Below are positions 15,738 through 33,434 of a stretch of DNA of 64,000 nucleotides, one piece after another. Each line of letters begins with the position of its first letter. Position 1 is the stretch's first letter. The DNA is taken from positions 2,896 to 66,895 of the forward strand of contig JACUUY010000001.1 in NCBI GenBank assembly GCA_014859085.1, in the 5' to 3' direction. Origin of the DNA: a candidate division WOR-3 bacterium. GTDB lineage: Bacteria > Hydrothermota > Tepidihabitantia > SM23-42. A program made the translations under genes and the position numbers. The notes beneath the pieces were generated by a model that worked only from the letters and a program-made list of their open reading frames with translations, was not told where the DNA came from and made no database searches.

Positions 15738-16364
15738 TCAATTGAGGATGACATTCTCGCCCAGGGGTTCGAAGCGGTCGGCCTTTTCTTTCAGATCGTA
15801 CGCCGTGTTATCCGGGAAGGCGAATATCTCGACCCGTTTGTTCTTGCCCTTGATGAAATCGACCAGCGGTACGAAATCACCGTCGCCCGATGCCAGGACG
15901 ATCGTGTCGACGCGCTCGAGGATGCCCAGTATGTCGAGGGCGATACCCATATCCCAGTTGGCCTTGGCCGAGCCGTTGGCGCGCGTCCTCACTTCTTTTG
16001 TTTTTACGATATAGCCGATGCGCTCGAGGCTCATCGCGAACGGTTTGACATCACCCTCGGGCGGCTGGACAATGTAGGCATATGCTTTTATCAGGTGGCG
16101 GTTCCCGGTTATCAGCCGGATCAGTTTTTCGTAATTCACTTTCGCCGCATAACCGGTTCGTGCCGAGTAGTACAGATTCTGCGAGTCGACGAAGATCGCC
16201 ACGGTTTCTTTTTTGACGAATTTCGATGATTCGAGCAATTCCCTCAGCGACCTTATCTCACTGTGTATCTGGCTGAAGTGTTGCTCCATCTGCCGGTTGA
16301 AATTTTGCTGTATCTCCTCAAATGATCCTGCTTCAGACCCCTCGTTCGCCATTTCGGCCTCCAT
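15738..16364 (-). CDS. NYN-domain (LabA-like/DUF88) protein, predicted RNase-fold
   Basis: 208 aa. IFVDSQNLYYSAR...IVLASGDGDFVPLV is typical of the NYN/LabA family. Confidence 0.6.
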   Translation of the reverse strand: MEAEMANEGSEAGSFEEIQQNFNRQMEQHFSQIHSEIRSLRELLESSKFVKKETVAIFVDSQNLYYSARTGYAAKVNYEKLIRLITGNRHLIKAYAYIVQPPEGDVKPFAMSLERIGYIVKTKEVRTRANGSAKANWDMGIALDILGILERVDTIVLASGDGDFVPLVDFIKGKNKRVEIFAFPDNTAYDLKEKADRFEPLGENVILN

Positions 16365-16399: not shown

Positions 16400-17680
16400 C
16401 TAATAACCGGCGTCAATGATTCCGGGCGGCAGGTATTTGTACAGGGTCGGCTGGCTTCTTTCACCGATGGCGTTCGTCCAGACCAGGACGTAATCGTTCA
16501 CGCCCCGGATGTCCACGAAGACGAACTGCTGTCCATTAACATACTGCCAGTGTTCGTATGGTTTGGATTCATGCAGTTGCAGCGGCAGAGGGAATTCGAT
16601 CTCGTCTGGTTGACCGTACTTCACGTGTATTCGCCCGCGGTCGGTCTTGCGGCCGGGAGTATCACCGAGCCGGTAATGTTCATCGGCATACTCGAATCGC
16701 TCGGCGATCTCGTTGTAGTTATGGGTACGCCAGAATCTCTCGAGGTAGGCTTTCTTGCCGTCACCGGGCAGTTGCTTGAATTTATTGTAGTCTCTCGGAT
16801 CGAGAAAATATTCGATCTCGTCGTAGAAGGGCATGCCTTCAAAGCTGACCTCACGTTGTTTCGTATCCGCTATCCTGAACCACGTTGCCTTCTCGGCGAT
16901 CGGGTTCGCATGATTGTCCTCGATCGCGACCGCAAGCCGGTATTCACCGGCCGGAATGTTCTGAATATCGATGCCGCAGTCCACCGCTTGCGACGTAAAG
17001 GCCTTCTCTATCTTTCTTGTCACCTTGCGGATGGTCTTGCCTTCGCCATCAGTGACTGTGTACACCGCGGTCAGTGTATCATTGTCCGGCGTGATGTCGT
17101 ATATTTCATAGTAGAAGAACAGATGCCGGAAGCGGCTGTCGAACAGACGGGATGGCCGCGGGATCACCCGCAGGTTGCCCTTTCTCAGGTTGTCGCCTGC
17201 CGTATCGATCGTTATCTCGCTGGCCAGATTGATGTCGCTCAGTGTGTACCGCTCCCTTGTTATCTCGAGCTCGTCTTCGGATATCCCGCGCTTGGCGCCG
17301 GACAGCAATTCGATGCGATACTTGAACCGGCCTTCGGTGGCATAGGTGCCGAACTGAACGAGAAAGGAGAGCTGTTCCTTTGCCGCGTATGAGAACGACG
17401 GGATCGTGAATTGCCGGTAGAGCGTGTCGATCAGCGAATCGGCATGGTCGAGGTCGATGAGCGCGAACGGCATAACGGCGTTCGCGTAGATGATCTTCTC
17501 GGCCGATTGATATTGCAATTCCTGGTAAGGGATCTCGCAGTTGAATTCGATATAATACACTTCCTCGGTCGTCAAAGTGTGTTCCACGGTATCTTCCAGC
17601 TCGATATGTTCCCGGTAGACAACGGGGTCAGCAAAGAATCTTATGTCACCGGCTGATAACAATAGGGCAAGGAGCATCAT
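16400..17680 (-). CDS. GWxTD-domain protein (paralog 1), secreted
   Basis: The start is placed at the internal MMLLALLLSAGD signal-peptide Met, to avoid a 100-bp overlap with the upstream paralog. C-terminal TPGRKTDRGRIHVKYGQPDEI...YEHWQY...FVFVDIRGVNDYVLV matches the GWxTD domain signature. Confidence 0.55.
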   Translation of the reverse strand: MMLLALLLSAGDIRFFADPVVYREHIELEDTVEHTLTTEEVYYIEFNCEIPYQELQYQSAEKIIYANAVMPFALIDLDHADSLIDTLYRQFTIPSFSYAAKEQLSFLVQFGTYATEGRFKYRIELLSGAKRGISEDELEITRERYTLSDINLASEITIDTAGDNLRKGNLRVIPRPSRLFDSRFRHLFFYYEIYDITPDNDTLTAVYTVTDGEGKTIRKVTRKIEKAFTSQAVDCGIDIQNIPAGEYRLAVAIEDNHANPIAEKATWFRIADTKQREVSFEGMPFYDEIEYFLDPRDYNKFKQLPGDGKKAYLERFWRTHNYNEIAERFEYADEHYRLGDTPGRKTDRGRIHVKYGQPDEIEFPLPLQLHESKPYEHWQYVNGQQFVFVDIRGVNDYVLVWTNAIGERSQPTLYKYLPPGIIDAGY

Positions 17681-18729
17681 CTTACCCCCGATCCCGTGGG
17701 GTTGGCAAGCACGTACTGACCGAACCCGTGACGGTCGACGAAGATGAACCGCAGATTGTCCCGGTAGTACAGCCATACTTCATACGGGAAGGAGTCGATT
17801 TCGTAGGGATAGCGCTGGATCTCGTCGGGCGACCCGTGTTTTACAAAGATCCGCGCCCGGTCACTGCGCCAGCCGCGGTCGCCGCCTGAGAAGTTCTTCT
17901 CGGCGTAGGCGATCCGCTCAAAGTACTCGACCTCTTTTTCATTGTATGCCGTGTTCGGCGTCGGATCCAAGTTCTTCCAGAATGCGGTCCACAGCGAATC
18001 GCGGGTCGAAACCTCGGACTGTTTCAGGACCTTCATTTCGGATGGTGTCGCGATGTACTGCAGTTGATCCACTTTCAGCGACCAGGTTTTCTCATCAAGG
18101 TAGAATGGTCGCGTGACTTTGACCGGCACGATGGACTCGTCGATCTTCCTTTGTTCCGCATAGATGAATAATTTCAACTCATAGTCATCGATCGGAAGTC
18201 CGCCGACGTAGAACATGAGGGATTCGGCATGAGTGCCCCGACGGGCCTTCGTTGTACTTCTCAAATCCTCTATCGCCGCCGCTATGCTGTCGATATTGCC
18301 ATGCTGGTTGAGAACGGTGAACCTTAAATACATTGTATCATTCTTGACCGTATAGTGAATGCCGGCCAGGTTCCTCGCCTGGGCGAGCTTCTGGCTTGCC
18401 GTGAATATCTCACCGGCATGCAGGTCAAGAATCCTCAGCACAAAATAGTCGCCGTCTGCCGGGATGTGGAGCTTGACCGAATCCGCGATGCCGGCCGCCT
18501 CTTCGCCTTCGGAAACCTGCCGCCGCCAGTAGTCGCCGGTCAGTTGGCGGTTCGTCTTGTCATACAGCGTGAGTTGGATCTCGTACCGGGCACGGAAATC
18601 ATTCCCGGCGGAGATGTACTGCAATTTTTGCCTCGGTATGTTAATGTACGTCACGAGTTCCTGCAGTGAATCACGATGCACCCGGGTCATGGCCTGGTAC
18701 TCGATCTGGAAGAAGAGGAAAAATATCAT
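17677..18729 (-). CDS. GWxTD-domain protein (paralog 2)
   Basis: 350 aa. C-terminal GGDRGWRSDRARIFVKHGSPDEI...YEVWLY...FIFVDRHGFGQYVLA. It shares N-terminal and C-terminal similarity with 16400..17680 (tandem duplication). AAGGAG Shine-Dalgarno 9 nt before the ATG. Confidence 0.55.
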   Translation of the reverse strand: MIFFLFFQIEYQAMTRVHRDSLQELVTYINIPRQKLQYISAGNDFRARYEIQLTLYDKTNRQLTGDYWRRQVSEGEEAAGIADSVKLHIPADGDYFVLRILDLHAGEIFTASQKLAQARNLAGIHYTVKNDTMYLRFTVLNQHGNIDSIAAAIEDLRSTTKARRGTHAESLMFYVGGLPIDDYELKLFIYAEQRKIDESIVPVKVTRPFYLDEKTWSLKVDQLQYIATPSEMKVLKQSEVSTRDSLWTAFWKNLDPTPNTAYNEKEVEYFERIAYAEKNFSGGDRGWRSDRARIFVKHGSPDEIQRYPYEIDSFPYEVWLYYRDNLRFIFVDRHGFGQYVLANPTGSGVR

Positions 18730-18742
18730 ATGATTTCTCTCC

Positions 18743-21073
18743 TTATTTCTTGCTGGGGAATACTCTGTTCAACGCTTGTTCGATCTTTGACGCGAAGATG
18801 AATGACAGTCCGGTGCGAACGTGCCTTGGGATTTCCTGCAGGTCTTTTTCATTCTCCTTTGGCAGCATGATCTTTGCGATGCCGGCTCTCTTTGCGGCAA
18901 TCACTTTTTCCTTTATGCCGCCGACCGGCAGGACGCGTCCGGAAAGCGTGATCTCACCGGAAAATGCGATCTTGGGATCGATCGGTTCGTTCCTCATCAG
19001 TGAAGCCAGAGACATTACCACGGCAAGACCCGCTGAAGGACCGTCCTTGGGAATGGCGCCGGATGGAATGTGCACGTGGAGTTCCTGGTTCTCAAAGCCC
19101 TCTTCCTCGATCCCCCACCGTGTCAGCTTTGTCTTCAGATACGAGAGTGCGGCCTGGCACGATTCCTTCATGACATCCCCGAGCAGGCCGGTCAGTATCA
19201 GTCCCTTCTTCCCCCTGGTTTGCAGCGATTCGATGAAGAGTATCTCGCCGCCGTAAGGCGTCCAGGCAAGCCCGGTGGCCACGCCGACCTGTCCGGCGCG
19301 CGCGGCAACCTCACCAGGGATCTTCTGGGGCCCCAACAGGCGGGACAGGTTCTTCGCGGTGATCCTGCTCTTGCCGCGTTTGCCTTCGGCAACGCGCTTG
19401 GCTACTTTGCGGCAGATGGATCCGATCAACCGCTCGAGATTTCTCACGCCCGCCTCTTTTGTATAGTTGCTGATGATGTTCTTCACGGCCTCGTCTTCAA
19501 AGGCAATGCCGTTTGATTTCAACCCCGTTTCACTGATTTGGCGCGGGATTAAGTATTTCCGGGCGATCTCCAATTTCTCCTCGAGGATGTACCCCGGCAG
19601 TTCGATTATCTCCATGCGGTCTCTCAGCGCCGGGATTATCGAATCGACGACATTACCCGTGGCGATGAACATGACGCGCGATAGATCAAAAGGCACTTCA
19701 AGATAATGGTCGGAAAAAGCGTTATTCTGCTCGGGGTCGAGCACCTCGAGCAATGCCGAGGATGGATCGCCGCGGAAATCAGCGCCCACCTTGTCGATCT
19801 CGTCGAGCATGAATACTGGATTGTTCGTCCCGCAGTTCTTTATCGACTGAATGATGCGGCCGGGTAAAGCGCCGACGTACGTTCTGCGGTGGCCGCGTAT
19901 TTCGGCTTCGTCCCGAATGCCGCCCAGGGATATCCGAATGAATTTCCTTTCCAGGGCGCGGGCGATGGATTTGCCGAGCGAGGTCTTGCCGACACCGGGC
20001 GGTCCGATGAAACAGAGGATCGTACCCCGGGAATCGGGTTTTAGTTTCTTTACGGCAAGATATTCAAGGATCCTTGATTTCACTTTCTCCAGATCGTAAT
20101 GGTCCTCGTCGAGGATCCTCTGCGCCCGGCTGATATTGATGTTATCCTGCGTCGAGATCGACCAGGGTAATGAGACGAGCCAGTCTATGTATGTACGGGA
20201 AACCGTGTACTCGGCAGCCTGGGGCGGCATCTTTGCGAGACGGTCTAGTTCTTTCAGCGCCACCTTGTTGGTCGGCTCCGGCATTCTGGCTTCCATTATT
20301 TTCTTTCTCAGATCCTCCACTTCCCGCGTCTGCTCGTCCGTTTCACCGAGTTCGCGCTGGATCGCTTTCAGTTGCTCCCGGAGATAGAATTCGCGCTGGC
20401 CTTTGTCCAACTCGCTCTTCACGTCAGAGCGGATCTTGGCGCCGAGTTCGAGGATACTGATCTCCTTCTGGAGCATCGGGATGAGCCGTGTGAAGCGTTC
20501 CTTGGGATCGGTTAGCTCGAGCAGAGTCTGTTTTTCGTTGTAGTCGAAGTTGATCGTGCTGGTCACGAAATCGATCAGATTGTCGGGATTCTCCATGTTG
20601 AGGACGACCGCGGCGTATTCATCGGGCAGGTAGGGTGCGAGCGAAACGAGGTGCTGGAACATCACAACCACGTTGCGGACCATTGCCTCGAGCGCGACCG
20701 TCTTCCGGTAGGCCGGGGCAATGGTCTCGATCCTGGCTTTCAGGTACGGTTCTTGCTGCGTGAATGTGGCGACCCTGAAGCGTTTGAGTCCTTTGATCAG
20801 CAGCCGTATCGTGCCGTCCGGGAAACGGAGCATCTTTGTGATCTGAATGACGCAGCCGACCGTGAAGACTTCATCGGGCCGCGGATCCTCGATGTCCGGA
20901 TTGCGCTGGGTCAGGGCGCACGCAAGTTTGTTCGTCGTTAGCAGTTCATCGATCAGTTTCGCAAGTTTCGGCGTGTGGATGATAAGCGGCACTATCTGAT
21001 CCGGGAATATCACACCCCCTTTGATCGGAATGATGCCTAATTCTTCAGGTATCTTTATCGAAGTGTCGATCAA
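18743..21073 (-). CDS. lon: ATP-dependent Lon protease (La)
   Basis: 776 aa. Lon N-domain, Walker [16 protein letters not shown], and S16 protease motif [19 protein letters not shown] start. Confidence 0.9.
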
Positions 21074-21225: not shown

Positions 21226-21654
21226 TCAGTCTCCTTCAACCGGAATGATCTTCTCCTGCAGGGTTTTGCACTCGATCTTCAGGATGCCGTCCGTAACCTC
21301 ATACCGGTACTGCTCCGCCTCGACCGGGATCGGGAAGTCTATTCGGCGATAGAATGCGCCGAACGGTATCTCGAAGGTGTGGAAGATGCAGCGCTCTTCG
21401 GCAATGTCCGGTGGTGGGGTACGATTCCCGGCGATGATCATGTGTCGGCGGTGGAGGAACACGGCTGTGTTCTGCAGGGCGACGCCTGGAAGTTCGATGT
21501 GTACGATTATCGCTTCGCTCGTAGTGTAGAGATTGTACAATGGTTGCCATCCCGTGATCTCGGAGAAGATACCGATGTCCCCGTGGTCAATGCTCTCGCC
21601 GACGATGAATCTGAGGCCTTTTTCCCGGCAATTGTTCGCGGCCGATCGCTTCAA
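21226..21654 (-). CDS. Hsp20/alpha-crystallin family small heat-shock protein
   Basis: 142 aa. The alpha-crystallin domain pattern W.P...L......IVHIELPGV....V........IAGNR....FEIPFGAFYRRIDFP..V......Y...DGILKIECK is present. There is a 4-nt ATGA overlap with the upstream HEAT-repeat gene. Confidence 0.55.
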   Translation of the reverse strand: MKRSAANNCREKGLRFIVGESIDHGDIGIFSEITGWQPLYNLYTTSEAIIVHIELPGVALQNTAVFLHRRHMIIAGNRTPPPDIAEERCIFHTFEIPFGAFYRRIDFPIPVEAEQYRYEVTDGILKIECKTLQEKIIPVEGD

Positions 21655-23843
21655 TCCGTTCTCTCCTCGGCGGCGGCGGTGATGCGCTGCAGAACATCCT
21701 GGGCCGTACCGGCGATGAAGCGGTTGCGGCTGTTCGCCGCTTTCTGCAACACCTGCATGGCTTTTGGCGTGCTGATCTGCGCCAGGGCATTGAGCGCAGC
21801 CGCTTTGGTCGGCTGCAACAGGCTGCGCTTGAACAAGACACGGTCCTTGACGACGGCGATCAAAGCGTTCACGACCGCGTCCTCCTTGCTTTTAGCAATA
21901 GCCTGGATGACCGTGGTCCGGAAATGCTCTTCGGTCTCGTCCGGTATCGACTTCTGTCTCTTCAGCCACTGCAGCACCCTGGGGAGTTTTGTTTTGAAAT
22001 CCTCCGGATCCAGGCACTTCATTGCCTCGAGCGTGACCTGTGGGTTTTTGCTGTTCAGTGCTTTCTTGATATACGCGGTTGACCTGGCGCCGCCGATCTT
22101 GTTGAGACTTGCAATCACCTCGAGCTGGATCTGGATGCTTTCTTCGTTGATCAATTTGCCGATATCGTCGATTGCCGATTCTGCCTTCAACTCGCCCAGG
22201 ATGAAAACGCCATTACGCCGCGCATACCACTCATCCGCCTCAAGCAGCCTGAGAATTTCGGGGATGGCCTTGTCGCTCATCCGTTTCAGTGTGTCAAGGA
22301 TCTTCATCCGGACCGCGTAGTCATCGGCCTCGCGCAGTGTCTGGACCAGCATCGGCACGGAATGGTCGGCAATTGCGATCAGAGCTTCCCTCGCTTCACC
22401 GTAGGTGCCCGGTGCCCACAATGAGGATAGCAATTCGGGAACGTATGTAGGATCGCGTGTCTCGCCGATGGCCTTGATCACAAAGCGCTTCCGTTCATGG
22501 AATATCGTATCTTTACGCATCAGGTATTTGGCGAATTTCTTGGCGATGAATTCCATTACCTCGGCATTGTTCCGGTCCCGCGCTTTTATATAGAGTATCT
22601 TCATCGCATCGATCGCCTTGGCGAACGCGGCAAGGTCGGATTCGGCCTCGGCCATCGCATCGAGGCGGTTAGCCATGAGGCAAACCAGATCGAAATTCTC
22701 GGCTTCGAACAGGCGGTCCGCGAACGCGACCAGTTCATCAACCGCATTGACCCGTTCTTCGATCGATTTGCTGCGCAGCACCGGGAAGTGGCTCTTCATT
22801 TCCATCTCGAGGTGTTTGATCGAATACTTGAGCGCCGACTCGCTGCTCTTCGTCGTCCTCACCCTTTTCAGCAACTGATCGATGAAGTCATGCGTGTACA
22901 CATCCGGCGCGCGTTCTCCGAGCGTCGTCAGGATATCGGGCAGCTTTGTGCTCGATACATTCCTGAGGATGTCAACGACCTCTTTGTCCGAATCCGGCGT
23001 CTTCTTCCTGGCGATCGTGGTAATGATCTCGACGATGTCCTCGTCGTCCATGGTCGGCACCAGCTTGCGGAACATGTCAACCAATTTCGCGTTCTCGGAC
23101 CGGTACCGGATGATGTTCTTCTTGACCGAGGGCGACAGGATGGCAAGGATCCTCGAGAATACCAGCGAGTATTCGTGCCACCTTTCCTCGCCATACCGGT
23201 CCTTGATCCTAAGCGAGAGTTTTTCGAGTCCGGTCAGTATCTTCTCGGCCTGCGTGTCCATCGAATCTTCTCCGGTGATGCCAAGTGCGCCGAGGAAATT
23301 ACCGAGTTCCTTGAGTCTATCTTCTTCGGTCTTGGGCGCTTCCGATGTAATGATCGATTCCAGGAAGTTATCCCAATCCAATTCGCGAAATTCATCCTCC
23401 GAGGTCACGACGCCGACACGGTAGATGTTCACCTTGATGCCGGTGATCGCACGAAGGCGCAACACGACCGCGACATCGCCGTAGTCATCGATCTCGGCCG
23501 GCGGCAAGGCCATGACCGAGAAGAATTCCTTGAGATCGTGCTCGCCGGCTTCGGTGTTGAACGTGATGCTGTTCACGCCCACTTGGGTGCATATATCGAT
23601 CAGGTATTTCACGATCGGTATTCTTGCCGAATCGAAGCGCTCGTCATCGATCTTCAGTACACTTTCGATGATGATTATCGAGACGACCCGCTTTTCGATC
23701 CGCAGTTCGTCGAACAGCGCCCGCAGGCGGTGGATCGTGCGATCCATGGACGGGTGACCTTCTGGATAGGTGCGCGCAAGGTAAATGCCCATCCTCAGCA
23801 GTTTAAGCAGGTCGTCGTATAGCTTCAGTACATTCTCTTCCAT
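21651..23843 (-). CDS. HEAT-repeat (PBS-lyase-like) protein with unknown N-terminal domain
   Basis: 730 aa. The C-terminal half has repeated AVR..A...LG..KA..A...LL...D.D..VR..A..AL-type HEAT motifs (AVRMKILDTLKRMSDKAIPEILRLLEADEWYARRNGVFILGEL...). It is translationally coupled to the genes on both sides. Confidence 0.6.
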   Translation of the reverse strand: MEENVLKLYDDLLKLLRMGIYLARTYPEGHPSMDRTIHRLRALFDELRIEKRVVSIIIIESVLKIDDERFDSARIPIVKYLIDICTQVGVNSITFNTEAGEHDLKEFFSVMALPPAEIDDYGDVAVVLRLRAITGIKVNIYRVGVVTSEDEFRELDWDNFLESIITSEAPKTEEDRLKELGNFLGALGITGEDSMDTQAEKILTGLEKLSLRIKDRYGEERWHEYSLVFSRILAILSPSVKKNIIRYRSENAKLVDMFRKLVPTMDDEDIVEIITTIARKKTPDSDKEVVDILRNVSSTKLPDILTTLGERAPDVYTHDFIDQLLKRVRTTKSSESALKYSIKHLEMEMKSHFPVLRSKSIEERVNAVDELVAFADRLFEAENFDLVCLMANRLDAMAEAESDLAAFAKAIDAMKILYIKARDRNNAEVMEFIAKKFAKYLMRKDTIFHERKRFVIKAIGETRDPTYVPELLSSLWAPGTYGEAREALIAIADHSVPMLVQTLREADDYAVRMKILDTLKRMSDKAIPEILRLLEADEWYARRNGVFILGELKAESAIDDIGKLINEESIQIQLEVIASLNKIGGARSTAYIKKALNSKNPQVTLEAMKCLDPEDFKTKLPRVLQWLKRQKSIPDETEEHFRTTVIQAIAKSKEDAVVNALIAVVKDRVLFKRSLLQPTKAAALNALAQISTPKAMQVLQKAANSRNRFIAGTAQDVLQRITAAAEERTD

Positions 23844-24490
23844 TAGCCTCTCAATTTAAGCTGGTACTCGTATGCCTGAACGCCAAGAGATTCTTCCACG
23901 AATTCGCCGACTTCACGGTAGGCAAAGAATCCCTTGGTGACCCGGTATAGATTCTCACCGACAAGAATAGTGTTGCTCGCGGCGTTCTTCTGTAGTATCT
24001 GGCTCTTGCGGAATCCCTTGGTCAGGATCAGTGCATTTCTCACGTTCTGGTTAAGGTCGAAGATCGATGCAGGTTCGATCTCGGCGCCAACCTTGAGACC
24101 GATCGGGCTCTTGAAACTCCCCTTTTTGTTGAAATCGAACAACTTATTGAACATTTCCTCGGCGGTCAATATCGCCATGTGAGGCGCGAACCCCGATTCG
24201 AGATCGAGCCCGAAGATGCTGACGATCTCGTCACCGATCACCTGATATATGGTCCCTTTGTTGGCCGATATGATCTGCGCAAAGACGCTGAATATCTCGT
24301 TGAGCAGGGCCATGACGTCTTCGGCGATCATTGCTTCGCTCATCGTGGTGAACCCGGAGAGGTCGACGCGCAGGAAGGTCAGTTTCAGATCATCGAACGG
24401 TGAGGCGGTCTGATCGCGGAGGGCCGCCCCGCACCACTGGCAGAAATTGAGTGCCGGCGCGGTTTCTTTCTGGCAGCTATTGCATACCAT
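23843..24490 (-). CDS. Zn-ribbon plus class III nucleotidyl cyclase homology domain protein (small subunit; degenerate Arg position)
   Basis: 215 aa. N-terminal CxxC...CxxC (MVCNSCQ...CQWCG). The cyclase domain retains both metal-binding Asp motifs (LRVDLSGFT; VIGDEIVSIFG) and the Asn (KNAASN), but has Asn in place of the transition-state Arg (ASR->ASN). Alignment was done by eye. Confidence 0.55.
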   Translation of the reverse strand: MVCNSCQKETAPALNFCQWCGAALRDQTASPFDDLKLTFLRVDLSGFTTMSEAMIAEDVMALLNEIFSVFAQIISANKGTIYQVIGDEIVSIFGLDLESGFAPHMAILTAEEMFNKLFDFNKKGSFKSPIGLKVGAEIEPASIFDLNQNVRNALILTKGFRKSQILQKNAASNTILVGENLYRVTKGFFAYREVGEFVEESLGVQAYEYQLKLRG

Positions 24491-24491
24491 G

Positions 24492-27400
24492 CTATATCTC
24501 CAGCAGTTTCGAATATTCCGGCCGGCGCGTGTAGTATTGACGGTTCGCGCTGCTCAGTCGCGACTTGATGTCGTCATAAACGAGGAGTGCTTTTCGGCCG
24601 TAGTAGCGGGCTTGTTCGATGTTATCTTTTTGAAGAAAAACGAGAGCAATTCGGTATAGCGCATCGGCGATCAACGGCGGCAGTTTCATGCGTTCGGCCA
24701 GGTCCAGCGCTTTCTTCGCGTCTTCCATGCCGTGATTCTTGTCGATCATGGACCGCAGTATGTAACACTGGAATTCGATCTCGCGCTGATTCGACCTTTC
24801 TGCAATCTCAATGCTGTTAAGCGCGTAGTCGCTGGCTTTCTTGTAATCGCGGCTGTTATAGTGGACGAGGCCTTTTTTCAAGGCGATCTCAGCGAGGAGG
24901 CTTTCGCGAACGAGAAAGGACATCTTGCGATCGACGTCCTTAAGGTAGTCGGCGACCCGGTCTGATTCGCCGTTCAGAGAACAGATGCAGGCGAGGTCGA
25001 GCGCCGATCTGATGTACGCGTCGAGACTACCGACCGAATCCGCGGTCATCAGACACTCGCTGAGCACATTCTTTGCCTTCTCGATATTCCATATCTCGTA
25101 GTCAACGCCGGCAACGAGATATTGCAGTTCAATGTTTTTTCTGATGTCCGCGACATCGACGAGGATCTCCAGCCCGTATTGAAGATATTCAAGGGCTTTT
25201 TCGTAGTTGCCCAGACCCTTATGCAACCTTGACAGGTTTAGCAGGCAGAGTATCTCGGCTTCCTTAATGTCATTTGCGCGGGCCGTCCGCCAGCTGAGAT
25301 TATAGTTCAACAGGCAACTGTCATATTCATAGCGGCTTGCATAGAGCATTCCCAGGTTCGCGTAAAGAATGGGCAGGATGTGCGTCATCTGCTCATCACA
25401 TTTCTCAATGCTCGAAACAAGGAGTTCCTCGGCCTGCTCCGTGCGGTTGAGCAGGATCAGTCCATAGGCCGCGCGTTCGGCAAAGAGCACGGCGTTCTTA
25501 TTGTCGTGGTCCTGACGCGCTTCGAACAACCTCTCGCGGGCAGTTTTCTCCATCTTGCTGATGTCGCCCTTGATCTCATAAATGTCTATGATGTTGAGCA
25601 TGATGTCGCGGTACAGGTCTTTTGGCAGATCGTAGCTATGATCTTTCTTGATACTGAGCACTTGTTCATAGAAGGCAAGCGCCTGGTCGATCGCATACAG
25701 ATTCTTGGCTTTGTCGCCGGCAAGCTTGTAGTACTTCGTTGCGTTGTGATACTGGTCGCAGGCGAGGTAGTGCTGCGCGACATCTTCATAAAATGAGGAA
25801 ATGTTGTCGGCGTAGATCTGCTCGAACAGACCGGCAACCTGAAAATGCACTTCCTTGCGTTTCCGGACCGGCAGGACCGTATAGGCCGCATCGCGGAGCA
25901 GATTGTGCCGGAAGATGTATATCGGGTCATCTCCGGCGGCGGATAAGACGATATATCCCTCGGCGTTCAACTGGTCAAGATGCTCCTGCAGGTCGGGCCG
26001 GGGCAGGAGTTCCCTCAGAATACGGAGGCTGAAACGGTAACCGATCACCGAAGCATAATCGATTATGAGGCGCGCATCCAGGGTGAGGGAATCGATCGTC
26101 GACATGACCATGCCGTACAGGTCATCGAGGAAGACGAGGGTCTGTTTTCTTGCGAGGTACCATTTGCCGGCGGTCTGGTGGATTATCTTGTTGCGTCGTG
26201 TGTTGCGAATGGCTTCGATCGTGAAGAGCGGGTTACCACCGGCTTCGCGGTAGATGAAATCAGTGAGGCTGTCATCGACATTACCCAGGATATGCTGCAC
26301 GAGCGCGTAGATGTGTTGTCGTGGGAGCGGCTTGAGGTCTATTTCCTCGATGCTGGTCGATCCCGGCAGAGAGCCATGATCGGGCACGTTCACGAGCACG
26401 AACATCACTGGTTCCTTCTCCAGTTCGAACATCAAGTATGCAAGGAGCTCCCTGGACATCAGGTCGGCTTGGCCGCATTCCTCAAAGATGAGGATCAGCG
26501 GTTTCCGGTGGGATTCGTCCCGGACGATATTAAGCATTGACGCGTAGATCTCTTCGTTGATCATGCGCAGCTCATCGCTGCGAAGGCGTCCGATGTCGGT
26601 CAGCAGCAGATGCTTGATCCCTTTGGCCAGTGCCGCATTTAGGGTCTCTCCGACGACCATGGCCTCGATGCGTTTGTTTATGCTTTGTTGGTTGTCGAGT
26701 TCGTGCAGTTGCAGCAAGTTTCTGAGCAGGGTCCTGAACGGGAAGTAAGGTGATTGAACGTCGACCGAGCAGTTCGTCTCGAGGCAGAGGACTTCATTGC
26801 TTTTGTGCAGGTGGGCCTCCAGCTCCTCCTTGAGTCGTGTCTTACCGATCCCCAGTTGTCCATTGATGACGCAGCGTAATCCTCCGTGTTTGACTGATTC
26901 CTGAGCAAGCGTGAGCAGTCGCTGCAGTTCAGCTTCCCGGCCGAACAAAGGCATGCGCATTGGTTCGGCCGTGCGGGGCGTGGTTCGGATCTTCTGGAGC
27001 CGGTAAATGTCGACTTTTGTTTCTTTGCCTTTGAGGGTCTGCTCGCCGATGTGCTCGGCGTCAATGTAGCGAAAAACCGCGTTATGTGTGGTTCGGCTCA
27101 TGAGGATCTCGCTCTGCTGGCTCATCTCGGTCAGCCGGGCGGCGGTATTGATGCTGTCGCCGATCACGGTCAGGAAGGGCGATTCTTTGAGCACGAAGCC
27201 GAAGAATGCCCGGCCCGTGTTCATGCCGATCCTGAGATCGGTATCTTTGAGAAACTTCGATTCTTGTTTGTTTTTCAGCCACCAGTCCCGGATGCGGCTG
27301 GCGCAGCGTGTCGCCCTCAGGGCGTCGTCATGATGCGCTTGCGGCGCGCCGAAAATGGCGAGGATCCGGAAATCCGGGATGATACGGTTCGACGTACCGT

Positions 27401-27665
27401 TGTACTCGTCCACAATTTCCTCGATATTACGGAGGAATTGCTGGATATGTTCACTTGTCGCAGCGTATGTGTCCTTCCTGATCAGCCGGTCGATGCCGCT
27501 CAGGTTGACGAAGAATACGGTGAGGAGCCTGAGCTCGCCGCCCAGGAGCCGGAGCCGCTCAGACTCCATTGCGGCGGGTGGCTCCGCTTTCAATGCGGTA
27601 CCGCACCGTGTGCAGAAAATTGCATTATCAGGTATATCCGGAAAATTACAGAGCAGACACTTCAT
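24492..27665 (-). CDS. Zn-ribbon plus class III cyclase homology domain plus STAND/AAA NTPase plus TPR-repeat multidomain protein
   Basis: 1057 aa. N-terminal MKCLLCNF...CTRCG zinc ribbon. The cyclase domain has Asn replacing the first metal Asp (FFVNLSGI) but keeps the second Asp (IIPDF..AIFG) and the Asn/Arg motif (VIGDSINTAARL). Walker A GQLGIGKTRL. The long C-terminal region is TPR-like. Confidence 0.7.
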   Translation of the reverse strand: MKCLLCNFPDIPDNAIFCTRCGTALKAEPPAAMESERLRLLGGELRLLTVFFVNLSGIDRLIRKDTYAATSEHIQQFLRNIEEIVDEYNGTSNRIIPDFRILAIFGAPQAHHDDALRATRCASRIRDWWLKNKQESKFLKDTDLRIGMNTGRAFFGFVLKESPFLTVIGDSINTAARLTEMSQQSEILMSRTTHNAVFRYIDAEHIGEQTLKGKETKVDIYRLQKIRTTPRTAEPMRMPLFGREAELQRLLTLAQESVKHGGLRCVINGQLGIGKTRLKEELEAHLHKSNEVLCLETNCSVDVQSPYFPFRTLLRNLLQLHELDNQQSINKRIEAMVVGETLNAALAKGIKHLLLTDIGRLRSDELRMINEEIYASMLNIVRDESHRKPLILIFEECGQADLMSRELLAYLMFELEKEPVMFVLVNVPDHGSLPGSTSIEEIDLKPLPRQHIYALVQHILGNVDDSLTDFIYREAGGNPLFTIEAIRNTRRNKIIHQTAGKWYLARKQTLVFLDDLYGMVMSTIDSLTLDARLIIDYASVIGYRFSLRILRELLPRPDLQEHLDQLNAEGYIVLSAAGDDPIYIFRHNLLRDAAYTVLPVRKRKEVHFQVAGLFEQIYADNISSFYEDVAQHYLACDQYHNATKYYKLAGDKAKNLYAIDQALAFYEQVLSIKKDHSYDLPKDLYRDIMLNIIDIYEIKGDISKMEKTARERLFEARQDHDNKNAVLFAERAAYGLILLNRTEQAEELLVSSIEKCDEQMTHILPILYANLGMLYASRYEYDSCLLNYNLSWRTARANDIKEAEILCLLNLSRLHKGLGNYEKALEYLQYGLEILVDVADIRKNIELQYLVAGVDYEIWNIEKAKNVLSECLMTADSVGSLDAYIRSALDLACICSLNGESDRVADYLKDVDRKMSFLVRESLLAEIALKKGLVHYNSRDYKKASDYALNSIEIAERSNQREIEFQCYILRSMIDKNHGMEDAKKALDLAERMKLPPLIADALYRIALVFLQKDNIEQARYYGRKALLVYDDIKSRLSSANRQYYTRRPEYSKLLEI

Positions 27666-27688: not shown

Positions 27689-27717
27689 ATTATATCGCAC
27701 CGGTTCAAATCTTTCAA
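27689..27717 (-). promoter_or_regulatory. sigma70 promoter (TTGAAA, 17 nt, TATAAT) for the cyclase/HEAT/Hsp20 operon
   Basis: Minus strand reads cTTGAAAgatttgaaccggtgcgaTATAATaggaaagggaattatcgataattATG (24-nt leader). Confidence 0.5.
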
Positions 27718-27803
27718 GAAGATTATAAGCAAATTTCACGATACGTCAAGATTGCGTGTTCTCGAGAACATTGCATCATGTTCCGCCATGAATATAATAG
27801 GGC

Positions 27804-28955: not shown

Positions 28956-30260
28956 ATGATGGGCAAGACCTTGGCGGAGAAGATGTTATCCGAGAAAAGC
29001 GGCCAGGATGCGTGCGCCGGCGGTATTGTGATCGCCCGCGTCGATGTTGCTGCTTTCCAGGACGGCACCGGTCCACTGGGCGTACGCCAGCTTCAGAAAA
29101 TGCATCTGGAAAAACTCCGGGCGCCGAAGGCAATTCTGTTCATCGACCACGCTGCGCCTTCGCCTCGCAAGGAACTCTCAAACGACCACATGCTGTTGCG
29201 GGAATTCAGTCGGAAATCGGGCGCCATACTGTCCGACATCGGTGAGGGTGTGATCCATCAGCGGCTGGTCGAATCCTATGTCAAGCCCGGCGATGTTGTG
29301 ATCGGCGCCGATTCGCACACGTGCACGTCCGGCGCGCTCGGCGCGTTTGCGACGGGCATGGGTTCGACCGACGTCGCGATCGGGATGGCAATGGGCCGCA
29401 CCTGGTTCAAGGTTCCCGAGACGTTCCGGGTCGAGGTGAAGGGTGATTTTACACCGGGCGTTGGTTCCAAGGATCTCATTTTGTATCTCATCGGTCTGCT
29501 GGGTGCTGACGGCGCGACGTACAAGGCTCTGGAGTTCGGTGGCCCGGCGATCGAGAAAATGTCTATGGAGTCGCGGTTCGTTCTTGCCAACATGGCGGTG
29601 GAGGCAGGAGCCAAGACCGGGTTGATCGCGTCGGACCGAATAACGAAAGAGTATTTGAGATCACGCGGCCGCACCAAGGATTGGCGCGCGCTGGCGCCGG
29701 ATAAGGATGCGGAATATGAGCGGGTGATCGAGATCGACGCGCGTAAACTCGTACCCCAGGTTGCCTTTCCGCACACGGTTGACAACACCAGGAATATCAG
29801 CAAGGCGCTGGGGATAAAGGTCGATCAGGTATTCCTCGGCACGTGCACGAATGGACGCATCGAGGATTTGAAGATCGCGGCCCAGATCATCAGGGGCAAA
29901 CAGCGCGCGCCCGGCACAAGATTGGTGGTCGTACCGGCATCGCGCGACGTCTTTCTGTCAGCAATGAAATCAGGGTTGCTGGACGTATTCGTGCGCGCGG
30001 GCGGCATTGTCCTGGGTCCGGGTTGCGGGCCGTGCGTCGGGGTCCATCAGGGCATTCTCGGCGACGGCGAGGTCTGTCTCTCGACCGCCAACCGCAACTT
30101 CCGCGGCCGGATGGGCAACCCTGAGGGCCTTGTATACTTGGCTTCGCCGGCGACCGCCGCCTACTCGGCGATAAAGGGCGAAATCAGCGATCCGAGAGAT
30201 GTGTATGCAAAGAAGCGCCGGCGTGGTAGAGTCATGAAGCCGCGGCGGAAGAAGAAATAG
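28956..30260 (+). CDS. aconitase-family large subunit, short archaeal LeuC/homoaconitase type
   Basis: 434 aa. Aconitase Fe-S ligand motifs (GADSHTCTSGA, GTCTNG, GPGCGPCVG). It ends in a polybasic tail AKKRRRGRVMKPRRKKK. Confidence 0.75.
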   Translation: MMGKTLAEKMLSEKSGQDACAGGIVIARVDVAAFQDGTGPLGVRQLQKMHLEKLRAPKAILFIDHAAPSPRKELSNDHMLLREFSRKSGAILSDIGEGVIHQRLVESYVKPGDVVIGADSHTCTSGALGAFATGMGSTDVAIGMAMGRTWFKVPETFRVEVKGDFTPGVGSKDLILYLIGLLGADGATYKALEFGGPAIEKMSMESRFVLANMAVEAGAKTGLIASDRITKEYLRSRGRTKDWRALAPDKDAEYERVIEIDARKLVPQVAFPHTVDNTRNISKALGIKVDQVFLGTCTNGRIEDLKIAAQIIRGKQRAPGTRLVVVPASRDVFLSAMKSGLLDVFVRAGGIVLGPGCGPCVGVHQGILGDGEVCLSTANRNFRGRMGNPEGLVYLASPATAAYSAIKGEISDPRDVYAKKRRRGRVMKPRRKKK

Positions 30261-30304
30261 AGGGTTTGATTTATTCAATTCATGACAAGCAAGGAGGAAA
30301 AACC

Positions 30305-31585
30305 ATGCCCAAACTAAGAGAAAAACTCGCAGCGATAATTCCGACGCTGCGCGACGATATCAAGAATCTTGTGAAGCAGAATGGCGATAAGGTAATCTCA
30401 GAGGTTACGGTTGCTCAGGCATACGGCGGCATGCGGGGCGTGAAGGCGCTCATATGTGATACCTCGGTCGTTCCTCCGGACAAGGGATTGATAATCCGGG
30501 GGTATCCGATCGGCGACCTGAAAGACAAATTGCCCGAAGGAGTCTTCTATCTGCTGGTGACCGGTGAAATGCCGGACAATGCAGCACTGGAAGCGCTCAG
30601 CAAGGATTTGAGCGCGCGCGCGCGGGTGCCGGACTATGTCTGGGAGACATTGGCCGCGATGCCCAAGGATTCGCACCCAATGGTGATGTTCAGCCTGGGC
30701 ATTCTTGCCATGGAGCGGGAATCGCTATTCAGAGAGAAATATACCGAAGGGATGAAGAAGGATGTCTACTGGGAATCGACGCTCGAGGATTGCCTCAACA
30801 TGATCGGCCGGCTGCCCGACCTGGCCGCCGGTATATACCGGATGAGGTTTGACAAGGGCCCGAGGATCGATCCAGCTCCGAATCTCGATTGGGCGGCAAA
30901 CTACGCCCGCATGCTGGGTATCCCTGATAAGAACGGAGATTTTGCCAATCTCATGCGGCTCTACATGGTATTGCATTCTGACCACGAAGGCGGTAATGTC
31001 AGCGCCCACACGTGTCACTGCGTTGGGTCCGCGCTTTCCGATCCTTACTACGCAGTTTCGGCCGGATTGAATGGCCTGGCCGGCCCGTTACACGGCCTGG
31101 CAAATCAAGAATGCCTGCGCTGGGTGATCATGGTCAAGGAGAAATTCGGCGGTGTGCCCACGGACGAGCAGCTGAAGCAATTCGCCTGGGATACCCTGAA
31201 TTCCGGGCAGGTCATTCCCGGTTATGGTCATGCCGTGTTGAGGATAACCGATCCTCGTTTTGATGCTTTCCGTGAATTCGGGTCCCGCGTCTGCGCCGAT
31301 GACCCGTATTTTCAGATCGTCGACAAGGTTTTCAGGGTCGTGCCGGATGTGTTGCGCGAGCACGGCAAGGCGAAAGATCCCTGGCCCAATGTTGACGCCG
31401 CTTCAGGTTGTCTGCTCTACCATTTCGGCCTTACTGAATTCGAATATTATACGGTCCTGTTCGGCGTATCGAGGGCCCTGGGCATGTGCGCCCAATTGAT
31501 CGTCAGCCGCGCCCTGGGTGAGGCGATCGAACGGCCGAAGTCAGTGACCACGGCGTGGATCAAGCAAACGGTGGCCAAGGGTTGA
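30305..31585 (+). CDS. citrate synthase (eukaryotic/type-I-like)
   Basis: The start is placed at the ATG preceded by AAGGAGG, not at the track start 30266. The signature VAQAYGGMRGVKALICDTSVVPPDKGLIIRGYPI is present, along with catalytic His and Asp regions downstream. Confidence 0.8.
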   Translation: MPKLREKLAAIIPTLRDDIKNLVKQNGDKVISEVTVAQAYGGMRGVKALICDTSVVPPDKGLIIRGYPIGDLKDKLPEGVFYLLVTGEMPDNAALEALSKDLSARARVPDYVWETLAAMPKDSHPMVMFSLGILAMERESLFREKYTEGMKKDVYWESTLEDCLNMIGRLPDLAAGIYRMRFDKGPRIDPAPNLDWAANYARMLGIPDKNGDFANLMRLYMVLHSDHEGGNVSAHTCHCVGSALSDPYYAVSAGLNGLAGPLHGLANQECLRWVIMVKEKFGGVPTDEQLKQFAWDTLNSGQVIPGYGHAVLRITDPRFDAFREFGSRVCADDPYFQIVDKVFRVVPDVLREHGKAKDPWPNVDAASGCLLYHFGLTEFEYYTVLFGVSRALGMCAQLIVSRALGEAIERPKSVTTAWIKQTVAKG

Positions 31586-31607
31586 GCAGCCAAGGGCAGG
31601 AGGTATC

Positions 31608-32108
31608 ATGGTTCTCAAGGGAAAGGCCTGGAAGTTCGGCGACAGCATTTCGACCGATCTGATATGCCCGGGCCGGTATTTCCATCTGCGTTCGAATCTG
31701 CCCGAACTTGCCAAACATGTGCTTGAAGACGCGGATGCGCAATTCGCGGCGCAGATGGCACGGGGCGACTTCGTTGTGGCCGGCGGCAATTTCGGATTGG
31801 GCAGTTCACGCGAGCACGCGCCGACGATCATAAAGCTGGCCGGCGTGTCGGCGGTGCTGGCCAAGTCCTTCGCGCGCATTTTCTACCGCAATGCGATAAA
31901 TGTGGGCCTGCCGTTGGTCGAGTGTGACACCGATCTTATCGAGCAGGGCGATGAGCTTACGGTCGACCTGGCCGCCGGCACGGTCCAGGATTTTACGAAG
32001 AAGATCGAACTCAAGAGCCATTCGCTACCCAGGGCGATGTTGAATATCTTGAACGACGGCGGACTGCTGGCACATATCGAGAAGCACGGCGATTTCAAGT
32101 TGGACTGA
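31608..32108 (+). CDS. aconitase-family small subunit, LeuD type
   Basis: 166 aa. GDSISTDLICPGRY...GGNFGLGSSREHAP is typical of the LeuD/HACN small subunit. Confidence 0.75.
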   Translation: MVLKGKAWKFGDSISTDLICPGRYFHLRSNLPELAKHVLEDADAQFAAQMARGDFVVAGGNFGLGSSREHAPTIIKLAGVSAVLAKSFARIFYRNAINVGLPLVECDTDLIEQGDELTVDLAAGTVQDFTKKIELKSHSLPRAMLNILNDGGLLAHIEKHGDFKLD

Positions 32109-32123
32109 GTCAAGGAGAAAAGC

Positions 32124-33434
32124 ATGAAGAAGATAAGGAAAGTCAGGCCGAGGACGGTCAAGAAGGTGAGATCAAAGAAGGGAGTGAGACGTGTAACGAC
32201 GAAGCGGCCGGCCCGGAAGAAGATGGTGAAGAAAGCCGCGCCGGTCTCGATCGTGCGGGCGCAGGAACATTTCCGGGGGATACTCGAGACCCAGCTGGCA
32301 AGGGTGACGCGTCTGAAAAAGGCGCAGGATTGGATCGACTATGCAAAATTGAAGCCCATTGTCATCGGTATCCTGGGCGGCGACGGCATCGGTCCGTACA
32401 TCACCGGTGAAGCGCAGCGGGTGCTCGAGCATCTGCTCGAGGACGAGGTGGCAAAGGGCAAGGTCGAATTCCGCGCGATCGAAGGCATGACCATCGAGCG
32501 GAGAGCCGAAGTCAACAAGGCGATCCCGGACGACGTGCTTGTCGAGATAAAGAAATGCCACGTCACCCTGAAAGGTCCGACAACGACGCCCAAGAAGGGC
32601 GATCCCTGGCCTAACATCGAAAGCGCCAACGTGGCGGTGCGCAAGGAGCTCGATCTCTTTGCCAATGTCCGGCCGGTGCGGGTCCCCAAACTGGGCATCG
32701 ATTGGATGTTCTTCCGGGAGAATACCGAGGATGTCTACGCGCTTGGCCCGTTCGGCATTGAGGTGACGCCGGACATTGCGATCGATTTTAAGCTTACGAC
32801 CAAACCAGGGAGCCAGCGGATCATCAAACTGGCGTTCGAATACGCCCGGAAGAACAAGCAGAGCCGTGTGACCGCGGTCACCAAGGCGAATGTCGTGAAG
32901 ACGACGGACGGGCTGTTCCTCAAGACATTCTATGAGATCGCCAAACAATATCCGGGGATCGAAGCGGACGATTGGTTCATCGACATAATGACGGCGAAGT
33001 TGGTCGATGAGAAGCGGCGCCGGGAATTCAAGGTGATGGTCTTGCCCAATCTCTATGGGGACATCCTCACCGACGAAGCCGCCGAATTCCAGGGTGGGGT
33101 CGGCACGGCCGGCAGCGCCAATATCGGCAAGCGCTATGCAATGTTTGAAGCGATCCACGGCAGTGCACCGCGCATGGTAAAAGAAGGCAGAGCGCAGTAT
33201 GCAGATCCGAGCAGTGTCATTCGGGCTGGCTCGATGTTGCTCAATCACATCGGTTATGTGGAACTCGGCAGCCGGCTGGGGATGGCACTGGACATCTGCG
33301 GCCAATACGAGAAGAAACTCGTGATGACCGGGCGTTCGACCGGTGCGGCGGGGCGTGACTTCTGCGATTACATACTGGCGACGATAGCCGATCCGAACCT
33401 GGCCGCGCGCTGGCAGGAGTACCAGCTGGCATAG
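32124..33434 (+). CDS. isocitrate/isopropylmalate dehydrogenase-family enzyme with a roughly 90-aa polybasic N-terminal extension
   Basis: 436 aa. The core runs from ...IVIGILGGDGIGPYI... to NLYGDILTDEAAEFQGGVGTAGSANIG (IDH-like). The N-terminus MKKIRKVRPRTVKKVRSKKGVRRVTTKRPARKKMVKKAAP is in frame, preceded by an AAGGAG Shine-Dalgarno sequence 6 nt upstream of the ATG at 32124. Confidence 0.7.
   Translation: MKKIRKVRPRTVKKVRSKKGVRRVTTKRPARKKMVKKAAPVSIVRAQEHFRGILETQLARVTRLKKAQDWIDYAKLKPIVIGILGGDGIGPYITGEAQRVLEHLLEDEVAKGKVEFRAIEGMTIERRAEVNKAIPDDVLVEIKKCHVTLKGPTTTPKKGDPWPNIESANVAVRKELDLFANVRPVRVPKLGIDWMFFRENTEDVYALGPFGIEVTPDIAIDFKLTTKPGSQRIIKLAFEYARKNKQSRVTAVTKANVVKTTDGLFLKTFYEIAKQYPGIEADDWFIDIMTAKLVDEKRRREFKVMVLPNLYGDILTDEAAEFQGGVGTAGSANIGKRYAMFEAIHGSAPRMVKEGRAQYADPSSVIRAGSMLLNHIGYVELGSRLGMALDICGQYEKKLVMTGRSTGAAGRDFCDYILATIADPNLAARWQEYQLA

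Follow-up and report, generated by a model that had tools for sequence, protein, structure and literature searches.

A conserved three-gene operon in candidate phylum WOR-3 probably encodes a split, asymmetric class III nucleotidyl cyclase

Introduction

In the structural literature, bacterial class III nucleotidyl cyclases are self-sufficient two-site homodimers in which a single cyclase homology domain (CHD) carries all catalytic residues (PMC4174876), and one-site asymmetry, as in membrane adenylyl cyclases (ACs), soluble adenylyl cyclase (sAC) and soluble guanylyl cyclase (sGC), is regarded as eukaryotic. In sGC and in the C1/C2 domains of membrane ACs, one chain contributes the metal-binding Asp residues and its partner the residues for specificity and the transition state (PMC4174876). 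In full-length sAC (ADCY10), C1 and C2 precede a region predicted as a STAND P-loop (PMC12802110), Chloroflexus has been mentioned as having a sAC-like cyclase (PMC11006738), and Rv0386 is a CHD fused to an AAA-ATPase (PMC3938503). We found no report of a natural two-gene bacterial heterodimeric class III cyclase in the literature, our coverage of which was incomplete, such that this amounts to absence of evidence only. Here we analyze a 64,000-nt stretch of DNA from a candidate division WOR-3 bacterium (contig JACUUY010000001.1, positions 2,896 to 66,895; hereafter the window), in which three tightly packed minus-strand open reading frames (ORFs) at 21651-27665 encode proteins of 1057, 215 and 730 aa, which we call the large, small and HEAT proteins.

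A first-pass annotation of this DNA had given correct coordinates for the large and small genes, both of which lie on the minus strand, and proposed them as an obligate heterodimeric cyclase. Its central idea about the pair is supported by our sequence comparisons, but it overlooked the third gene, which is co-conserved and translationally coupled with the other two. We find that the large, small and HEAT genes form a conserved three-gene operon in candidate phylum WOR-3 and its relatives, and we consider it reasonably probable that this operon encodes a split, asymmetric class III nucleotidyl cyclase, with its two cyclase genes probably working only as a pair, like the halves of mammalian adenylyl cyclases. 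The protein domains, the conserved division of residues, the operon with its co-occurring genes and the fused analogues are seen directly in the sequences; heterodimer formation, catalysis and product are what we infer from them, and the roles proposed below for the pseudo-site, the STAND module and the HEAT protein are speculative.

Complementary catalytic residues in the two cyclase domains

Both proteins fall within the class III nucleotidyl cyclases by sequence and by fold match. As the first-pass annotation had it, each begins with a CxxC...CxxC zinc ribbon, whose four Cys are invariant in both families (the ribbon of the small protein being DUF7575 in Pfam), and each carries a class III cyclase domain, exceeding the gathering score of PF00211 (Guanylate_cyc). 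The Pfam match covers residues 48-223 of the large protein (profile positions 9-181 of 183, E 1e-11), whereas the single-sequence match of the small protein covers the N-terminal half of the domain only (profile positions 10-105, E 1e-6); the small-family profile, built from a 44-sequence alignment, aligns to CyaB (3r5g) across the entire domain. Both family profiles match CyaB, CyaC and other cyclases (E 1e-14 and 2.5e-25). An AlphaFold2 (AF2) model of the small protein predicts a complete cyclase fold (predicted local distance difference test (pLDDT) 86, predicted template-modelling score (pTM) 0.79), with the best Foldseek matches being CyaC, CyaB and rhodopsin-guanylyl cyclases (RhGCs) over ~180-195 aligned columns (template-modelling (TM) scores 0.65-0.89, normalised to target). 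This model and the full-domain profile alignment refute the idea that the small protein is a non-cyclase fold.

We took the residue register from profile alignments and from pairwise alignments to CyaB (3r5g) and CyaC (1wc0), and counted residue conservation across 44 small orthologues (43-84% identity) and 32 large orthologues (33-80% identity, measured over the N-terminal 245 aa). Neither protein carries in one chain all six catalytic residues of a self-sufficient homodimer, and each carries half of the set. The small protein has both metal-binding Asp residues (D43 and D87), as previously noted, along with F47 and T48 of the GFT loop, and is without the Lys (Q83), the Thr/Asp (L154), the Asn (R161) and the Arg (I165). 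The large protein, also as previously noted, has N54 at the position of metal Asp 1 and retains GDSINTAARL with its N173 and R177; its GFT loop is degenerate, the Lys position is R94, metal Asp 2 is D98 (followed by a 1-residue insertion), and the Thr/Asp position is T166.

The retained halves are held constant while the lost halves vary. In the small family, D43, F47, T48, G86, D87 and E88 are invariant and Q83 is found in 43/44 sequences, with position 161 being K, R, A, T, N or I and position 165 being I, L, V or A. In the large family, D98, T166, I168, G169, D170, N173, A175 and R177 are invariant, with position 54 distributed as N19/S7/D3/Q2/G1, the GFT loop scrambled, and position 94 being Arg or Lys in 25/32 sequences (R17, K8, Q3 and four singletons). 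The pattern is far beyond chance. The complementary residues are invariant across orthologues of 42-84% identity. The two CHDs thus show the complementary residue split of an asymmetric C1/C2 arrangement, and each family retains, under strong purifying selection, exactly the half-site lost by the other.

One part of the earlier reading of the small protein did not hold. KNAASN had been equated with the canonical VNxASR, with the Asn kept and the Arg lost; the loss of the Arg stands, but the Asn is gone as well, its position being the variable R161 and that of the Arg being I165. Equating the two motifs needs a deletion of ~8 residues, whereas two independent profile alignments, to CyaB and to CyaC, are free of gaps and give 161/165. 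We also considered a register with G159 as the Gly of GDxVN (Asn position S163, Arg position Q167), which was dropped for the ungapped profile register; in either of these two registers, Asn and Arg are both lost. The same stretch forms a motif that is strongly conserved in the small family (Table 1), with G159, F160, L166, Q167, N169 and A170 invariant and the remaining positions kept in 32-43/44 sequences.

Conservation of the three-gene operon

Scanning one genome per GTDB species for the small-family motifs, we identified a total of 38 orthologous loci in WOR-3, 'Stahlbacteria', TA06 and unclassified metagenome-assembled genomes (MAGs), with identities of 44-80%. Wherever the contig allows, the genes are ordered large (1052-1061 aa), small (212-219 aa) and HEAT (723-733 aa), with large orthologues of ~1052-1061 aa in 33 loci. 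Across these 38 loci and one distant WOR-3 locus (L043), the large and small genes are never apart, the HEAT gene lies directly downstream of the cyclase pair (in the orthologous loci, where the contig allows), and the junctions of the triad are overlaps or spacers of <=5 nt. The identity of the L043 proteins is 31% (small), 25% (large) and 32% (HEAT). The same division of residues recurs there: the small protein retains D/GFT/D, with Leu where the Asn would be, and the large protein, in which Gly replaces Asp 1 and the loop is deleted, retains the Thr and Asn and has Lys in place of the Arg. Outside the triads, no adjacent CHD pairs were found among the fetched loci L039-L080, each of which has a single CHD gene except L043 and L070, the latter having two CHD genes on opposite strands. 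The locus appears to be vertically inherited across the lineage, in conserved housekeeping synteny.

Within the window, the large/small junction reads ...GGAGATATAG-c-ATG, with a 1-nt spacer between the TAG of the large gene and the ATG of the small gene, and a Shine-Dalgarno-like GGAG lies 6 nt upstream of this ATG, within the large gene. An overlap of 1-3 nt had been claimed for this junction; the overlap is instead found at the small/HEAT junction (TAATG), where the start of the HEAT gene overlaps the stop of the small gene by 1 nt. Two tandem sigma-70-like promoter matches, each agreeing at 11/12 consensus positions, lie upstream of the large gene, within the 138 nt that separate it from the divergent rlmN, and no promoter-like or terminator-like sites were found between the three operon genes.

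Comparison with known cyclases

Against PDB chains of heteromeric cyclases, the small-family profile picks out the C1/alpha chains, namely VC1, the C1 of AC5, AC8 and AC9, sGC alpha, and sAC residues 40-196. The large profile scores sAC C2 at 58.5 bits vs. 18.9 bits for sAC C1, finds its best stretch in AC5 and AC9 in C2, and scores sGC beta above sGC alpha, a preference for C2/beta chains that is clear but not universal.

In function, the nearest known system would be sAC. In both, a C1-like half would give the Asps and a C2-like half the Lys, Thr, Asn and Arg, with a STAND region following, and sAC C2 has in common with the large protein an 'FVNL' sequence (Asn at metal Asp 1), the retained second Asp and the T/N/R residues, with its K334 (numbering as read here) aligning with large position 94. 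Unlike sAC, which is a single C1-C2-STAND polypeptide, the WOR-3 system has C2-STAND-TPR and C1 in separate genes, each with a zinc ribbon, and it shows neither the one-chain C1 and C2 nor the bicarbonate site of the ADCY10 family. The bicarbonate-site residues of sAC, which we take to be K95 and R176 in C1, have Q83 and I165 as their small-protein equivalents, so sAC-type bicarbonate activation is unexpected. Moreover, bacterial class IIIb cyclases outscore sAC with the large profile (CyaB reaches 92 bits), and we therefore regard the WOR-3 system as an analogue of sAC, not an orthologue.

In being two polypeptides, the WOR-3 pair is instead like sGC alpha/beta, and it would share with sGC and with membrane AC C1/C2 a head-to-tail interface that holds a single active site along with a pseudo-site (PMC4174876). 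Unlike the WOR-3 system, these enzymes are eukaryotic, bear H-NOX, PAS and coiled-coil regions or else membrane domains with G-protein control, and have no STAND module, zinc ribbon or HEAT partner.

Among bacterial proteins, mycobacterial Rv0386-type cyclases (CHD-ATPase-helix-turn-helix) and MalT-like STAND cyclases have their architecture in common with the WOR-3 system but are self-sufficient, and the terminal helix-turn-helix domain of the former is absent in the large protein. Canonical proteins with zinc ribbon, CHD, AAA_16 and TPR, such as P0185 and L041, are like the large protein in all of these parts but, unlike it, carry the full D/GFT/K/D/T/N/R set in one chain, with no partner needed. 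These canonical single-gene proteins would fit a duplication followed by subfunctionalisation.

Fused and single-domain STAND relatives

We additionally collected relatives through an exhaustive hidden Markov model search with the small-family profile against 1.84 billion representatives. Only 9 representatives were found at E <= 1e-30, each of them a member of the ~215-aa family or a fragment of one, followed by a score gap and then by long CHD-STAND proteins. The nearest non-family relatives of the small protein are CHD-CHD-AAA_16-TPR proteins: the best non-family matches (P0180, P0181, P0182, P0189, P0194 and P0273) have two CHDs and AAA_16 in a single chain, P0180 additionally with MalT-like TPRs.

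The two CHDs of these tandem proteins are themselves divided into a C1-like and a C2-like half. In P0180, P0189, P0194 and P0273, the first CHD is C1-like, with D/GFT/D kept and N/R missing, and the second is C2-like, with T/N/R kept and the Asps missing, while P0197, P0202 and P0297 have the reversed order, with the C2-like CHD first. For instance, CHD1 of P0273 scores 61 bits with the small profile vs. 33 with the large, and its CHD2 scores 85 with the large vs. 27 with the small; for P0194 the corresponding values are 62 vs. 43 and 80 vs. 41. For canonical single CHDs, the large-family profile scores ~30-50 bits above the small-family profile. The catalytic columns of P0180 read D/GFT/K/D/S/N/W in CHD1 and N/GFT/K/-/S/N/R in CHD2, and those of P0189 read D/GFT/R/D/T/T/K and S/GFD/K/-/T/N/R.

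Fused CHD-CHD-STAND relatives with complementary decay support, as a Rosetta-stone-type argument, a C1-like and a C2-like CHD acting together on a STAND platform. Such proteins (P0180, P0189, P0194, P0273 and P0202) are like the WOR-3 system in their STAND/TPR back end and complementary CHD degeneracy, but they are fused and mostly without zinc ribbons, whereas the WOR-3 genes are split, translationally coupled and always followed by a HEAT gene. The arrangement had been described as uncommon in bacteria, which is true of characterised enzymes but not of the nearest metagenomic relatives, where tandem pseudo-heterodimeric CHD-STAND proteins are frequent; these alignments show that asymmetry is no rarity in bacterial STAND cyclases that have yet to be characterised. 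The WOR-3 system stands out through its split over two genes, with a zinc ribbon of its own on each product.

We also observed an apparently uncharacterised further pseudo-heterodimer layout in P0188, P0195, P0205, P0207, P0226 and P0230 (1486-1625 aa), whose CHDs are ~400 aa apart (~residues 1-190 and 410-680), with the second CHD being C1-like (D/GFT/D kept; Asn lost, and in most also Arg) and the first keeping N/R. Finally, two zinc ribbon-CHD-STAND proteins have partly degenerate catalytic sets and no adjoining partner CHD: one from an Olavius symbiont, a delta-proteobacterium (L040:6001-9267), in which Asp 1 is Ser and the Asn position is Asp, and one from a Nitrospira MAG (L042:3986-7711), in which Gln replaces the Lys and Ile the Asn. 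These may be pseudo-cyclases or may be paired with a CHD encoded elsewhere.

Proposed mechanism and alternative explanations

We propose that the small CHD would act like the C1 half of mammalian ACs, sGC-alpha or sAC-C1, giving D43, D87 and the phosphate-binding GFT loop, and that the large CHD would act like the C2, sGC-beta or sAC-C2 half, giving R/K94 and T166 as base contacts, N173 to orient the ribose and R177 for the transition state. Paired head to tail as a heterodimer, the two would form one competent site, most likely converting ATP to cyclic AMP (cAMP), and a second, degenerate pseudo-site composed of large N54 and D98 and small Q83, L154, I165, Q167 and N169, to which a regulator may bind. 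Gating of the enzyme would fall to the STAND NTPase and TPR part, by nucleotide-dependent switching or by oligomerisation, and the HEAT protein would serve as a stoichiometric partner, either scaffold or regulator. The first-pass annotation had likewise predicted Asps from the small protein, Asn and Arg from the large, and one competent and one dead site; profiles, residue invariance, co-occurrence and fused relatives all speak for that prediction, although its residue bookkeeping of the small protein needed correction.

The chain that provides the Asn and Arg also provides the specificity residues in C1/C2-type enzymes (PMC4174876), so the live site would use R/K94 and T166 of the large protein. 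This looks like a near-canonical class IIIb (Lys/Thr) adenine-type pair, which would make cAMP the likeliest product. The product had earlier been left open on account of non-canonical Q and L residues, but these (Q83 and L154) belong to the small chain and would line the dead site, not the live one, where R94 and the invariant T166 are expected. Some doubt over cAMP would come from the Arg for Lys at position 94, seen in the window protein and in approximately half of the orthologues.

Several observations weigh against this proposal. Position 94 is neither Lys nor Arg in 7/32 orthologues, and the Arg of the window protein is unusual for adenylyl cyclases. The large profile scores VC1 about as well as IIC2, and its best stretch in AC8 is C1. 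Large D98 and small Q83, Q167 and N169 are conserved without a known catalytic role, such that the dead site or a non-catalytic function may be under selection. No receptor for cyclic nucleoside monophosphates (cNMPs) was identified in the operon.

Some of these observations would suit non-catalytic pseudo-cyclases, an explanation that we consider unlikely, in which the CHDs serve only as a dimerisation or nucleotide/ligand-sensing module of a HEAT-scaffolded STAND hub and no cNMP is made. The variation at position 94 and the Arg of the window protein are consistent with it, the conservation of small Q83, L166, Q167 and N169 and of large D98 suggests selection on a property other than catalysis, and degenerate CHDs are common among STAND relatives (L040, L042). 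However, the invariant residues are precisely a complementary catalytic set, which is hard to explain without a functional composite site.

We give a still lower probability, and regard it as distinctly improbable, that the two proteins form separate homodimers, with the small protein being a weak stand-alone cyclase or regulator, the large protein being a STAND protein with an inactive CHD, and their adjacency being due to tandem duplication. In its favour, the usual description of bacterial class III cyclases is that of homodimers (PMC4174876), each of the two proteins has its own zinc ribbon, and Asp is found at position 54 in 3/32 large orthologues. Yet a small homodimer would be without Asn and Arg, a large homodimer would be without Asp 1 and the GFT loop, the pair is translationally coupled and never apart in any of the loci, and fused C1-like/C2-like relatives exist.

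An anti-phage defence module, whether Pycsar-like cyclic-nucleotide signalling or an Avs-like STAND sensor, is very improbable. STAND NTPases are frequent in defence systems, and with the PADLOC models both CHDs match PycC weakly (<=33 bits), with further matches to TPR and HEAT-ARM models. However, similarity between CHDs in general would give PycC scores just as high, no effector is present in the operon (cNMP-binding, transmembrane, TIR and nuclease domains being absent), and the locus has unremarkable G+C content, apparent vertical inheritance and housekeeping synteny (rlmN upstream; small heat-shock protein (sHSP) and Lon genes downstream in close relatives), such that a Pycsar system, in which a PycC cyclase adjoins a cNMP-binding effector (transmembrane or TIR), was rejected in particular.

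Returning to the split asymmetric cyclase, its principle is known already and fused bacterial analogues exist, and the advance is therefore a new arrangement, namely a split three-gene arrangement on a STAND platform, and not a new mechanism. A two-gene, STAND-linked version would give a simple, separable system in which to follow the division of labour between catalytic site and pseudo-site, would represent a naturally occurring step in the evolution of pseudo-heterodimers from homodimers, and would give a first handle on cyclic-nucleotide signalling in uncultivated WOR-3, including its HEAT partner. A more far-reaching picture is possible but doubtful, in which no natural class III cyclase of two obligatorily paired gene products would have been known from bacteria before this one, and the pair, with the lineage-specific HEAT protein and its YPxGHP domain, would form a three-protein signalling machine in WOR-3, Stahlbacteria and TA06. 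Ligand sensing would be the task of the conserved dead site (large D98; small Q83, Q167 and N169), Arg in place of Lys at the base-contacting position might shift substrate or product away from ATP and cAMP, and the system would represent a 'duplicated but unfused' stage toward C1/C2 pseudo-heterodimers such as sAC.

STAND module, HEAT protein and genomic context

The coordinates of the operon, its protein domains and the neighbouring genes discussed below are collected in Table 1.

Table 1 Features of the three-gene operon and its surroundings (window positions)
Feature	Position	Strand	Details
NYN-domain gene	15738-16364		flanks the 458-aa ORF
458-aa ORF	16400-17776	-	no Pfam family at E <= 1e-5
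GWxTD-domain gene	17677-18729		flanks the 458-aa ORF
lon	18743-21073	-	downstream of operon, after sHSP gene
sHSP gene	21226-21654	-	Hsp20 family; downstream of operon
HEAT gene (third operon gene)	21651..23843	-	730 aa; N-terminal alpha/beta domain, helical middle, C-terminal HEAT repeats
HEAT protein N-terminal alpha/beta domain	23424-23843	-	aa 1-140 (predicted)
HEAT protein YPxGHP motif	23751-23768	-	Y26-P-x-G-H-P31, invariant
Small gene	23843..24490	-	215 aa; zinc ribbon and C1-like cyclase domain
Small protein cyclase homology domain	23855..24391	-	aa 34-212; D43, F47, T48, D87 invariant
Small protein motif	23981-24016	-	G159-F-x-K-S-Q-x-L166-Q167-K-N169-A170; strongly conserved, 44 sequences
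Large gene	24492..27665	-	1057 aa; zinc ribbon, C2-like cyclase domain, STAND (AAA_16) NTPase, TPR
Large protein C-terminal TPR/helical-repeat region	24495..25748	-	~aa 640-1057; TPR_12, TPR_2, TPR_16
Large protein AAA_16/STAND NTPase	26397..26951	-	aa 239-423; Pfam E 2e-18
Large protein Walker B	26463-26498	-	LILIFEE..D401
Large protein Walker A	26838-26861	-	G269-T276
Large protein class III cyclase homology domain	26970..27560	-	aa 36-232; C2/beta-like
Large protein zinc ribbon	27588..27665	-	aa 1-26; C3, C6, C18, C21 invariant
Two tandem sigma-70-like promoter matches	27689..27749	-	TTGACG-16-TATAAT, TTGAAA-17-TATAAT; consensus matches only
Aconitase/citrate synthase/dehydrogenase cluster	28956-33434	+	four genes, compact
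166-aa ORF	31608-32108	+	within the cluster
Isocitrate/isopropylmalate dehydrogenase (IDH/IPMDH)-family ORF	32124-33434	+	~45-aa N-terminal extension; Pfam match from residue 81

As first annotated, the large protein continues from its cyclase domain into a STAND NTPase and TPRs, and by its motifs it can be placed among the MalT/AfsR-like STAND NTPases (AAA_16) with a TPR sensor. Walker A (GxxGxGK[TS]) and Walker B (hhhFEE..D) are conserved across 33 large orthologues, so an active NTP switch is plausible. The top NCBIfam match of the large protein, the TOMM kinase/cyclase fusion family, falls far under that family's cut-off, and we therefore read it as common architecture only.

In the HEAT protein, the repeats detected by Pfam (HEAT_2 and HEAT_PBS) are confined to the last 280 aa (~aa 450-730). 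The first 445 aa give nothing above threshold against Pfam and have homologues only within the 730-aa family, and searching the protein against PDB sequences gave no match outside the HEAT repeats. AF2 predicts a confident alpha/beta domain, a low-confidence helical middle and HEAT-like helices, the model having a pLDDT of 75. A Foldseek search with the HEAT model returned only generic ARM/HEAT solenoids (TM ~0.2), with no fold match for the YPxGHP domain.

The small protein is 100% identical to that of an NCBI record for a candidate division WOR-3 bacterium. The neighbouring genes are housekeeping genes (gyrA, rlmN, an aconitase-family protein, citrate synthase, IDH/IPMDH and AcrB). Downstream of the operon, the sHSP gene and then lon lie on the same strand, and both, together with the divergent rlmN, are kept in close relatives. 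The sHSP and lon genes are linked to the operon in the closer relatives (L001-L007 and L038) and were not detected near it in the fetched flanks of distant relatives. A connection with stress may be hinted at by this linkage; heat stress raises the mRNA levels of two STAND-type cyclases, Rv0386 and Rv2488c, in M. tuberculosis (PMC3938503).

Elsewhere in the window, a 458-aa ORF to which no Pfam family could be assigned (Table 1) is flanked by an NYN-domain gene and a GWxTD-domain gene. On the other side of the operon, a compact plus-strand cluster encodes an aconitase-family large subunit, citrate synthase, a 166-aa ORF and an IDH/IPMDH-family dehydrogenase. The N-terminal extension of the last is extremely Lys/Arg-rich (MKKIRKVRPRTVKKVRSKKGVRRVTTKRPARKKMVKK...), being either a mis-called start or an unusual basic tail. 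Citrate synthase sits between the gene for the aconitase-family large subunit and the 166-aa ORF, whose position suggests an aconitase/LeuD-type small subunit.

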